The position numbers were made by a program, and so were the translations under genes. From a virus (Duplodnaviria; Caudoviricetes): DNA of 24,088 nucleotides. The stretch is from the IMG/VR virus record IMGVR_UViG_3300032332_000069, positions 1 through 24,088 of that record; one strand, 5' to 3'. The notes below the pieces were generated by a model. It saw only the letters and a list, made by a program, of their open reading frames with translations, was not told the origin of the DNA and did no database searches. The number at the start of each line of letters is the position of its first letter. Position 1 is the first letter of the stretch. This document shows, piece by piece, positions 2,520 to 4,640 of the stretch.

Positions 2520-2756
2520 ATGGAAAAGAAGCAAAACTATGGAGCTTGGAAAAAAGCTACCTCAAAAGGCGAAGTAATTGAATTTACTATTGAAGGGCAA
2601 CGATATTCAATGTGGCCTAATTCATACAAAAAGCCTGATAGTAAAGACCCTGATTTTAAAATATTCCCTAACGACTTCAAGCCAAAGGCAGAATTTAAAA
2701 AGGAATATTCAACACCAGTTAATCAACAGGAAAGCGAAGAAAACTTACCATTTTAA
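2520..2756 (+). CDS. Small putative ssDNA-binding protein (DUF736-like core, acidic SSB-type tail ESEENLPF)
   Basis: GAWKK...N.YK...PDFKI core. C-terminal LPF tail typical of SSBs. Located downstream of ERF. Confidence 0.65.
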   Translation: MEKKQNYGAWKKATSKGEVIEFTIEGQRYSMWPNSYKKPDSKDPDFKIFPNDFKPKAEFKKEYSTPVNQQESEENLPF

Positions 2757-2767
2757 ATAAACCAACT

Positions 2768-2962
2768 ATGAAAACACAAAAACAACAAATTAAAGCCTAT
2801 TTATCAAAAGGCAAATCAATTACCCCAATAGACGCTTTAAGTAAATTTGGATGCTTTAGATTATCAGCTAGGATTGCAGATTTAAGAAACGAAGGCTTAA
2901 ATATTGTAACTAAATACGTAACTAAAGGAGATAAAACATTTGCTAGTTATTCGGTAAAATAA
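2768..2962 (+). CDS. Winged helix-turn-helix protein (HTH_39-like)
   Basis: TQKQQIKAYLSKGKSITPIDALSKFGCFRLSARIADLRNEG is the typical pattern of this family. Confidence 0.82.
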   Translation: MKTQKQQIKAYLSKGKSITPIDALSKFGCFRLSARIADLRNEGLNIVTKYVTKGDKTFASYSVK

Positions 2963-2972
2963 GTTATATTTG
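2939..2972 (+). promoter_or_regulatory. Bacteroidota-type promoter for the replication genes (TTTG-N22-TATATTTG)
   Basis: TATATTTG 2965-2972 followed by CA; TTTG 2939-2942. Confidence 0.7.
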
Positions 2973-2973
2973 C

Positions 2974-3059
2974 AACGGATGTAGGATATCCATTTACAAA
3001 CTTATTGGCTCAAAGCTGAACCCTCAATCCTACTGGGGGGAATGCCGAGAGCCTTTTTT
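2974..3059 (+). ncRNA. Structured 5' leader RNA: two hairpins with complementary 7-nt loops (kissing loop), ending in a terminator-like stem and U-tract
   Basis: GGAT-[GTAGGAT]-ATCC 2977-2991; CCCTCA-[ATCCTAC]-TGGGGG 3021-3039; outer stem GGCTC 3007-3011 / GAGCC 3049-3053; T6 3054-3059. Confidence 0.7.
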
Positions 3060-3062
3060 ATT

Positions 3063-3812
3063 ATGTCAAAAGATACATTTTACTTTTCGCACGACTATAA
3101 TAGCCGGAATGATGAAAAGATAAAGTTTCTAATTAGGAAACACGGAATAACTGGGTATGGCTTATTTTGGGTAATCATTGAAGATTTATATAATAATGCG
3201 AACGCATTGCGAACGGATTACGAAGGCATTGCGTATGATTACAGGATTGAATGCGACATAGTAAAATCAGTAATTAATGACTTTAATTTATTTGTATTTG
3301 ATGGCGATACTTTTGGTAGTTTATCAGTGCAAAAACGTTTAGATGAACGAGATAGTAAAAGCGTAAAAGCAAGACAATCAGCTAGTAAGAGATGGACAAA
3401 TGCGAACGCAATGCGAACGCAATGCGATAGCAATGCTATAAAGGAAAGGAAAGGAAAGGAAATAAAGGAAAAGAAAGTAAATAAAGGAAAGGAAATAACT
3501 TACCCTTTTGATAGTGATAATTTTAAAAAATATTGGTCATTATGGGTTGAATTTAAGAAGGAACAATTTAATTTTACTTATAAATCAAATATATCAATTC
3601 AGGCTACGTTAAATGAATTAGTAAAACTTTCTAACGGACAGGAACAAACTGCTATTAAAATTATTGAACAGTCTATTGCTAAAGGATGGCAAGGATTATT
3701 TCAACTAAAAACCGAAACTAATGGAACTAACAACAACTCAAAAATCGCTCCAAAAATTACCGACCAACAGTTACACGAAGCCTTTGTTAAACGCAATAGT
3801 AATTGGAAATAA
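3063..3812 (+). CDS. Replication initiator, DUF4373 (Lin1244/Lin1753-like) N-terminal domain
   Basis: YFSHDYNSRNDEKI...GYGLFWVIIEDLY N-terminus, low-complexity basic linker, and a C-terminal domain ending SIAKGWQGLF. Start moved from 3042 to ATG 3063, downstream of the leader structure. Confidence 0.8.
   Translation: MSKDTFYFSHDYNSRNDEKIKFLIRKHGITGYGLFWVIIEDLYNNANALRTDYEGIAYDYRIECDIVKSVINDFNLFVFDGDTFGSLSVQKRLDERDSKSVKARQSASKRWTNANAMRTQCDSNAIKERKGKEIKEKKVNKGKEITYPFDSDNFKKYWSLWVEFKKEQFNFTYKSNISIQATLNELVKLSNGQEQTAIKIIEQSIAKGWQGLFQLKTETNGTNNNSKIAPKITDQQLHEAFVKRNSNWK
3195..3238 (+). repeat. Degenerate 11-bp tandem repeats (iteron cluster 1)
   Basis: AATGCGAACGC, ATTGCGAACGG, ATTACGAAGGC, ATTGCGTATGA. 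Confidence 0.65.
3399..3499 (+). repeat. Putative replication origin: 11-bp iterons (cluster 2) followed by a purine-rich AAAGG tract
   Basis: AATGCGAACGC x2, AATGCGATAGC, AATGCTATAAA (3399-3442), then (AAAGG)n-like purine tract to about 3499. Lies inside the initiator gene, as in lambda O. Confidence 0.75.
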
Positions 3813-4328: not shown

Positions 4329-4389
4329 TGCCCTCACAAATTATTAATTAACAAAATAAAGGGTGTTGATTAAACGTGGGGGCATTTTT
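4329..4389 (+). terminator. Extended hairpin terminator/attenuator after the replication genes
   Basis: TGCCCTCAC 4329-4337 / GTGGGGGCA 4376-4384; inner stem TTAATTAACA 4344-4353 / TGTTGATTAA 4364-4373; T5 4385-4389. Confidence 0.65.
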
Positions 4390-4394
4390 AAACT

Positions 4395-4640
4395 ATGAGC
4401 AACAAACTATATTACCACATTTGCAAGAAATACCCTGAAATAGAGTACAAAGGAGAAGATTTAAACCTAGAAAATCTTTATACTGAGGAACTAAAAAAGA
4501 GATGGTTAAACACTGTTAAATATCCAACAGTAACCGATATAGTAATTGAATTAAGAATAAGCGAAAGAACTGTATATAGATTAGCAAAGGAAAACAATCT
4601 AGGTTCACGCTGGGTACACCGTAAAAATAATCAACTATGA
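4395..4640 (+). CDS. Small HTH DNA-binding protein
   Basis: VTDIVIELRISERTVYRLAKENNL is a Fis-like HTH pattern. Confidence 0.7.
   Translation: MSNKLYYHICKKYPEIEYKGEDLNLENLYTEELKKRWLNTVKYPTVTDIVIELRISERTVYRLAKENNLGSRWVHRKNNQL

Follow-up and report, generated by a model that had tools for sequence, protein, structure and literature searches.

The closest working model for the leader RNA reported here appears to be the guanidine-IV riboswitch (GGAM-1/mepA, or Gd4v), which also links a pair of hairpins through a loop-loop pseudoknot, has an intrinsic terminator as its second hairpin and gives a product of ~90 nt (PMC7736828, PMC11611296, PMC9788692). Its rigid kissed form is proposed to stretch the linker, blocking the outer pairs of the terminator (Lenkeit et al., PMC7736828), and smFRET work supports a competition of the growing terminator stem with the kiss (PMC11611296). 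The present leader would nevertheless fall outside this class, on account of both its loops and its genes.

In phage P1, the terminated or processed RNA of the C4 leader regulates the genes that follow it. The CI RNA of P4 (seqA/seqC) and IsrK of Gifsy-1 are comparable phage leaders, whose terminated or processed RNA controls the genes downstream; these are replication genes in P4, and the terminated IsrK leader acts on its own read-through RNA (PMC4825925). P4, however, has three sites and maintains lysogeny (PMC4825925), whereas we find two sites. The repZ gene of plasmid ColIb-P9 (IncI-alpha) likewise has long-range pairing of leader loops upstream of a replication initiator, but its control is translational and is blocked by a separate antisense RNA, Inc (PMC8383071).

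Part of the element has probably been catalogued before. DNAVirus_187 has 49 nt and 122 sequences, 105 of them from freshwater, with a Bacteroidetes host, and lies upstream of 54 DUF1376 and 36 DUF4373 genes (Fremin et al. 2023, PMC10690425). The second hairpin of our leader has 47 nt and precedes the same two families; judged by length and gene families, this hairpin alone is probably that anonymous candidate. DNAVirus_187 is, however, too short to include the first hairpin and is scored 'no' as a terminator by RNIE (PMC10690425). The word 'kissing' is absent from the main text of that catalogue, and a search for the leader motif in part of its supplementary files gave no match (PMC10690425). 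A literature search, with most subscription journals outside its scope, found no description of the full element.

Anatomy of the leader

The window, i.e., the whole stretch of DNA analysed, is an entire virus record of 24,088 bases. Its genes from 1137 on, all on the plus strand, include those for DnaA-C HTH, ERF recombinase, HTH_39, Lin1244_N, NinG, methylase, terminase and portal proteins. Lin1244_N (PF14297) is a family that we take to be the one once named DUF4373. The order of the leader in related phages is a TAnnTTTG box, hairpin 1, a linker of 11-17 nt, a long hairpin 2, a U-tract and the AUG. Dimensions were measured in a filtered set of 75 distinct leaders with 14 loop codes, drawn from 237 locus entries (some contigs were fetched twice), for which an exact complement, a spacing of 43-48, U2/A6 and the hairpin-1 closing pair were imposed. 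Covariation was counted in an alignment of 32 sequences chosen for complementarity. The features of the window, with the support from these sets, are as follows.

2768 to 2962, plus strand: winged-helix gene HTH_39 upstream of the leader (open reading frame; PF14090, E 8.8e-13)
2939 to 2942, plus strand: putative -33 box TTTG, 22 nt 5' of the -7 box (TTG at a spacer of 17-23 in 46 of 75 leaders)
2965 to 2972, plus strand: -7 promoter box of Bacteroidota type, TATATTTG (71 of 75 leaders match TAnnTTTG perfectly, as do 3.9% of shuffles)
2977 to 2991, plus strand: hairpin 1, with stem GGAT (2977-2980) / ATCC (2988-2991) and loop 1 GTAGGAT (2981-2987); in 32 sequences the inner three pairs are 100% paired, two of them with double changes
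2992 to 3006, plus strand: A/U-rich linker of 15 nt, its 3' part AAACTTATT partly conserved (linker lengths in 75 leaders; column counts)
3007 to 3053, plus strand: hairpin 2, 47 nt (RNAalifold: double changes in 12 of 12 predicted pairs)
3027 to 3033, plus strand: loop 2 ATCCTAC, exact complement of loop 1 (sequence, covariation)
3054 to 3059, plus strand: U6 tract (T6), the tail of a predicted intrinsic terminator (the first 8 nt 3' of the stem have 5-7 T, median 7, in a set filtered for a T run)
3063 to 3812, plus strand: lambda-O-like replication initiator (PF14297 Lin1244_N, E 2.8e-9; phrog_2562 replication initiation protein, E 2.5e-17)
3197 to 3233, plus strand: iteron-like 11-bp tandem repeat within the initiator gene, 3.4 copies
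3399 to 3436, plus strand: second iteron-like array of an 11-bp tandem repeat within the initiator gene, 3.5 copies

Hairpin 2 has a base stem (GGCTC 3007-3011 / GAGCC 3049-3053), an AAA/CGA internal loop, a GC/GC step (3015-16/3044-45), a TGAA (3017-3020) / GAAT (3040-3043) internal loop and an apical stem (CCCTCA 3021-3026 / TGGGGG 3034-3039). The T6 tract is followed by ATT and by the ATG at 3063, so the AUG lies 9 nt 3' of the base stem. With a GC-rich stem and a U-tract directly 3' of it, the layout is that of an intrinsic terminator. Every hairpin, loop and stem named in an earlier note on this sequence, with the U6 and the AUG, lies where it was placed, base for base. The note's description of hairpin 2 stands for the stems, the loop and TGAA/GAAT, but had left out the 2-bp GC/GC step and the AAA/CGA internal loop. 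RNAfold draws hairpin 2 in the window as the note did, and closes hairpin 1 further, to an AGG triloop.

Transcription is predicted to start near 2976, and the 3' end of the HTH_39 gene overlaps the -33 region. As the promoter consensus TAnnTTTG/TTTG is that of Bacteroidota (PMC7366714), the host of the phage is presumably a member of this phylum. Homologues of the initiator begin with MSKDTFYF; an in-frame ATG at 3042 was rejected as an upstream start, being not common to most of them. The iteron-like arrays may mark a replication origin within the initiator gene.

Evidence from the window alone is weak, and the case for the leader rests on its homologues. The fold z-score of the leader is -0.84, the loop 7-mer occurs twice in the window (1.87 expected), a resampled 24-kb strand has on average 0.15 hairpin pairs whose 7-nt loops are complementary, and TAnnTTTG is found 38 times (38.9 expected). 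A simple terminator scan of the window found none; it missed hairpin 2 because the stem is interrupted. The earlier note could not assign the element to a named RNA family, and Rfam 15 gave no match in the window at the gathering threshold; a scan of 2700-3300 at E<=10 returned four weak matches, none on 2965-3065.

Loop complementarity and covariation among homologues

We used three tests of complementarity that do not select for a loop match, anchored respectively on a pattern, on the initiator protein and on the linker. The viral pattern scan fixed positions 1, 2 and 6 of loop 1 and left positions 3, 4, 5 and 7 and their partners free. All of its 70 matches were perfectly complementary (22 of 22 distinct leaders, with 6 codes), and none of 30 cross-code loop pairs of these leaders was. 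Protein-anchored leaders were defined by the promoter box and the U-tract, without reference to the loops, and 91 of 93 were complementary in all. Among the 77 viral loci fetched with a Lin1244_N initiator, 75 have the N-terminus; 35 of these have the -7 box and U-tract, and 34 of the 35 carry a 7-nt complementary pair. The 40 without that layout include a single complementary pair (L068), a real leader offset by the start call. For DUF1376-like initiators the counts were 57 of 58 with the layout and 0 of 3 without it, after 19 of 80 loci had been set aside for a missing N-terminus or too little upstream DNA. The linker-anchored loci were complementary in 43 of 44 cases, the miss being a contig (L091/L157) without hairpin 1 and promoter. 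In that contig the promoter and the 5' half of hairpin 1 are absent and the HTH gene runs into the leader, which suggests a deletion or a mis-assembly. As a control, a loose metagenome scan gave 7/7 complementarity in 0 of 113 background matches without both stems; among matches of the same scan with both stems 4 of 6 were complementary, and exactly these four have the promoter box.

Because the sequences are related, the raw counts overstate the number of independent events: parsimony on a rough tree gives ~20 code changes, not hundreds. In the 32-sequence alignment, chosen for complementarity, the loop-loop helix is 97.8% paired with double changes in five of its seven pairs, every helix of the leader covaries, and G.U covariants are present. 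The loop-loop complementarity that the earlier note had proposed to check in related leaders holds against the 0/113 background. Covariation bears out the kiss itself, the promoter, the terminator-like second hairpin and the association with replication initiators. We regard it as practically certain that this is a real, covarying kissing-loop leader RNA.

The dimensions of the leader are conserved. The -7 box lies 8-10 nt 5' of loop 1 in 66 of the 75 leaders, so hairpin 1 begins approximately at the predicted start site. Across the set the hairpin 1 stem has 3-8 bp, the linker 11-17 nt (median 14) and the 5' arm of hairpin 2 17-21 nt (median 20), and the AUG follows the base stem by 7-14 nt in all 75. 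Loop-to-loop spacing was 45-47 nt, though 32-82 was allowed. The loop bases U2 and A6 are also found throughout the 7-nt-loop leaders of the model alignment, which had no such condition; both positions are invariant in both loops, and the internal-loop purines of hairpin 2 are conserved. At the loop edges the flanks are U.U and A.A and complementarity stops there in 71 of 75 leaders, a count in which the hairpin-1 flanks were set by the filter and the hairpin-2 flanks were free. That complementarity ends at the loop edges fits a kiss of intact hairpins, not strand invasion.

A chance match, or an inverted repeat acting at the DNA level (operator pair or cruciform), would agree with the unremarkable single-window statistics. 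It is contradicted by the covariation in the unbiased sets, by the G.U covariants and by strand asymmetry, hairpin 2 being more stable on the sense than on the antisense strand in 54 of 75 leaders; moreover, an operator would conserve sequence and not complementarity alone. We consider it extremely improbable.

Leaders with identical hairpin-2 arms differ in as many as three loop pairs. The column counts do not demonstrate diversifying selection on the code: loop-centre columns have 9-12 changes, similar to the apical stem (6-15) and fewer than the variable linker (12-19). We also discarded 'UNR in one loop' as a signal; it is trivial because position 4 pairs with position 4. Weak matches to the model outside the training set included looser versions with covarying matches and other loop sizes (L013, L022, L027, L057 at 370, L058, L258, L372), and two had no clear loop match (L019 at 4694, L258 at 2947). 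In L063, L071 and L074 the leader upstream of the initiator is longer, with a giant terminator-like hairpin and upstream complements of 8-10 nt but no clear 7+7 loops; such leaders possibly represent a wider class.

Gene neighbourhood and distribution

The earlier note had tied the leader to DUF4373-type initiators, and in this it was too narrow. Near-identical copies precede non-homologous genes (Lin1244_N, DUF1376-like, HNH, ATPase-GNAT and other unassigned proteins), and the leader is kept while the gene downstream switches among unrelated initiators and HNH genes. Conversely, 39 of the 75 Lin1244_N loci with the N-terminus have neither the leader layout nor a match directly upstream; some initiator homologues of this kind have a looser leader before an inserted gene. 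In whole records, 43 of 50 had a model match, single-copy in all but one. Record G014 (L035) has two early regions with leader copies in opposite orientation and different initiators, and looks like a chimeric assembly. Outside the 50, two leaders of different code were found in one record twice, in L103 (1463-2817) and L189 (1751-1854 and 4607-4712). One leader of each pair precedes an inserted ATPase-GNAT or HNH-like gene, which suggests that genes insert together with the leader or behind it.

Phages carrying the leader have 28-34 kb, and the tyrosine integrase PF00589 was found in none of the 50 records, nor in the 25 that are at least 90% complete. Model scans of cellular genomes, run without a positive control, gave no match in 5 genomes (150 candidates scored each) or in 151 genomes (25 candidates scored each). 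A strong match occurred in one of 80 genome loci, on a 1.5-kb MAG contig, and records of cultured phages gave only distant initiators (<60% identity). We rejected the word share of 0.04 seen in wastewater RNA runs as a sign of the leader, since in four contig-only runs it consists mostly of initiator repeats and coding region; the small shares are explained by the 11-bp iteron-like repeats (3197-3233, 3399-3436), which are common to many unrelated contigs. A 259-nt contig that covers the leader and continues into another gene comes from a run whose RNA nature is a guess.

Other elements stand out in these records. L289 (8391-9413) and L297 (13340-14140) each have, between the HTH gene and the leader, an inserted gene that resembles cytosine methyltransferases and contains a long ORF nested in another frame. 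The window has a second terminator-like hairpin at 4330-4389, formed by GCCCTCAC (4330-4337) and GTGGGGGC (4376-4383) and followed by ATTTTT, with an ATG at 4395; its large A/T loop has a G run that could instead pair with the 5' arm, and L149 (3682-3799) and L062 (4258-4372) have similar elements. L123 (3127-3240) and L189 (4113-4226, minus strand) have covarying inverted 7-mers, TATTTTA/TAAAATA versus TACTTTA/TAAAGTA, around a promoter-like box, which could be an operator pair or another RNA.

A candidate steric attenuator

We lean slightly towards reading the two-hairpin leader as a steric attenuator of the replication operon. By analogy with guanidine-IV, the best reading is the one of the earlier note, in which loop pairing would decide between termination and read-through; it presumes transcription from the -7 box, termination, and the kiss as the ON state. 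Loop 1 would pair with loop 2 during transcription, and the short linker under the kiss would hold the bottom stem of the terminator apart, so that the polymerase reads on and the AUG region is freed. Without the kiss, hairpin 2 is predicted to zip up and an RNA of ~85 nt to be released at the U-tract, while the closed hairpin would crowd the AUG 9 nt away. Since the AUG is that close to the stem, opening the base stem would also ease initiation.

A straight-helix model, with assumed values (2.8 A per pair, ~6 A contour per unpaired nt), gives a median of 5.8 A per linker nucleotide (4.5-7.9) for a kiss with a closed base stem, which is near full extension, and 3.8 A with an open one. The closed base stem contributes 9.4 kcal/mol against 7.8 for the loop duplex, so the kissed and closed states are close in energy. 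As the geometry proposed for guanidine-IV holds here and the energies fit, we infer that the kiss would mean read-through. The geometry model is crude, and kissing terms are absent from the nearest-neighbour energies. Since kissing complexes can bend, as can internal loops, a kiss and a closed terminator may coexist. Other points against the attenuator are that RNAfold favours the hairpin 1 triloop, and that the terminator scan missed hairpin 2, as RNIE did for its probable earlier record. The 39 Lin1244_N loci with neither layout nor match, and the contig that lacks hairpin 1 and promoter, also count against it. A 7-bp Watson-Crick kiss may also be constitutively ON, without a clear input.

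The same kiss could act mainly on translation, with hairpin 2 hiding the ribosome site and the kiss opening it, as the IncI-alpha repZ pseudoknot might suggest. The position of the AUG behind the base stem in all 75 leaders would suit this, as does the need of repZ translation for a pseudoknot (PMC8383071). The conserved GC stem with its direct U-tract and the promoter 8-10 nt before loop 1 speak against it, no leader peptide was evident in the leaders inspected, and no third site was found at the AUG. We think mainly translational control unlikely.

It is a little more doubtful still that the terminated ~85-nt RNA is itself the product (a compact kissed RNA, a dimer or a protein decoy), read-through being mere leakiness not set by the kiss. 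The unit from promoter to U-tract does resemble a complete small gene, the invariant U2/A6 and conserved internal-loop purines suggest a defined tertiary fold, and there is a precedent in IsrK, a terminated leader that works as an sRNA (PMC4825925). The leader is, however, always fused 7-14 nt from a start codon, and no other target with the code was found in 10 complete or near-complete genomes.

A riboswitch of the guanidine-IV type, in which a metabolite or ion stabilises the kiss, is improbable, despite the shared layout of two hairpins, pseudoknot and terminator and a few invariant loop bases. Guanidine-IV is ligand-dependent and needs highly conserved loop bases, whereas five of seven loop pairs covary here over 14 codes, and this variation argues against a ligand pocket. 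The loops here are 7+7 nt and fully Watson-Crick; those of the Lactococcus lactis guanidine-IV, read by eye, comprise a short loop 1 and a longer loop 2 with a short match (PMC7736828). The genes of guanidine-IV are sugE, MATE, PnuC, NimA, GNAT and transaminase, not the phage initiators and HNH nucleases that dominate here, where the only GNAT-type neighbour among the loci of the 75 leaders is one ATPase-GNAT fusion (L103).

We give equally little credence to a cis-encoded antisense RNA that would be driven by a minus-strand promoter within the linker (TAAGTTTG, 2997-3004) and block loop 1 as Inc RNA does. On its minus strand the window has a perfect -7 box from which transcripts would begin at hairpin 1, and 50 of 75 linkers have at most one mismatch to it (~13% of shuffles), but the one-mismatch cases are mostly one scaffold family, the -7 motif is at chance level in the window, and the reverse box is perfect in 7 of 75 leaders, with a freely varying final G, against 71 of 75 for the forward box. 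Two differences from repZ are that no conserved antisense promoter was found in the 75 leaders, and that the pairing involves a terminator-like hairpin, through its loop. In 10 complete or near-complete genomes, the code was not found in any third hairpin. The leader's own code is not enriched near the AUG or upstream: a 6-nt copy of loop 1 follows the U-tract in 0 of 75 leaders, and loop-2 copies of at least 6 nt occur downstream in seven, with a mean equal to that of other codes. With no third site, conserved antisense promoter or tyrosine integrase found, the alternative offered by the earlier note, a target of antisense RNA as in P1 C4, P4 CI or plasmid (IncI-type) copy control, is not supported.

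The least certain part of the attenuator model is its input. Folding intermediates of the window include a small alternative hairpin within the 5' arm (3005-3019); of 34 distinct arms, however, only 12 reach -2 kcal/mol, so it is not a general antiterminator. As no ligand pocket, third site or conserved reverse box is supported, kinetics and feedback by the terminated RNA remain: the input would most likely be a race of kissing against elongation, possibly with feedback by released RNA, and not a small-molecule ligand. Such feedback would make the leader a self-titrating switch, one-piece and protein-free, in which each terminated ~85-nt leader, with both loops exposed, caps the loops of new leaders, blocks their internal kiss and forces more termination. 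This is conceivable, though we tend to doubt it. The evidence for it is thin: identical arms with differing loop codes and tandem leaders of unlike code (L103, L189) favour it, whereas loop columns change no faster than the apical stem and the intramolecular kiss should usually win. If true, the RNA would serve as a counter for genome copies or co-infecting phages, with exclusion groups set by the 7-nt code.

Should the leader merely dose expression constitutively, it would still be a well-supported RNA motif absent from Rfam. In the literature found, kissing-loop steric antitermination has been proposed only for ligand-bound guanidine-IV. If the attenuator model is true, a ligand-free version with a swappable 7-nt code would mean that this mechanism is a general expression platform, of which these phages hold a natural set of orthogonal switches. 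It would also suggest how small Bacteroidota phages, in which no integrase was found, dose their replication initiator.
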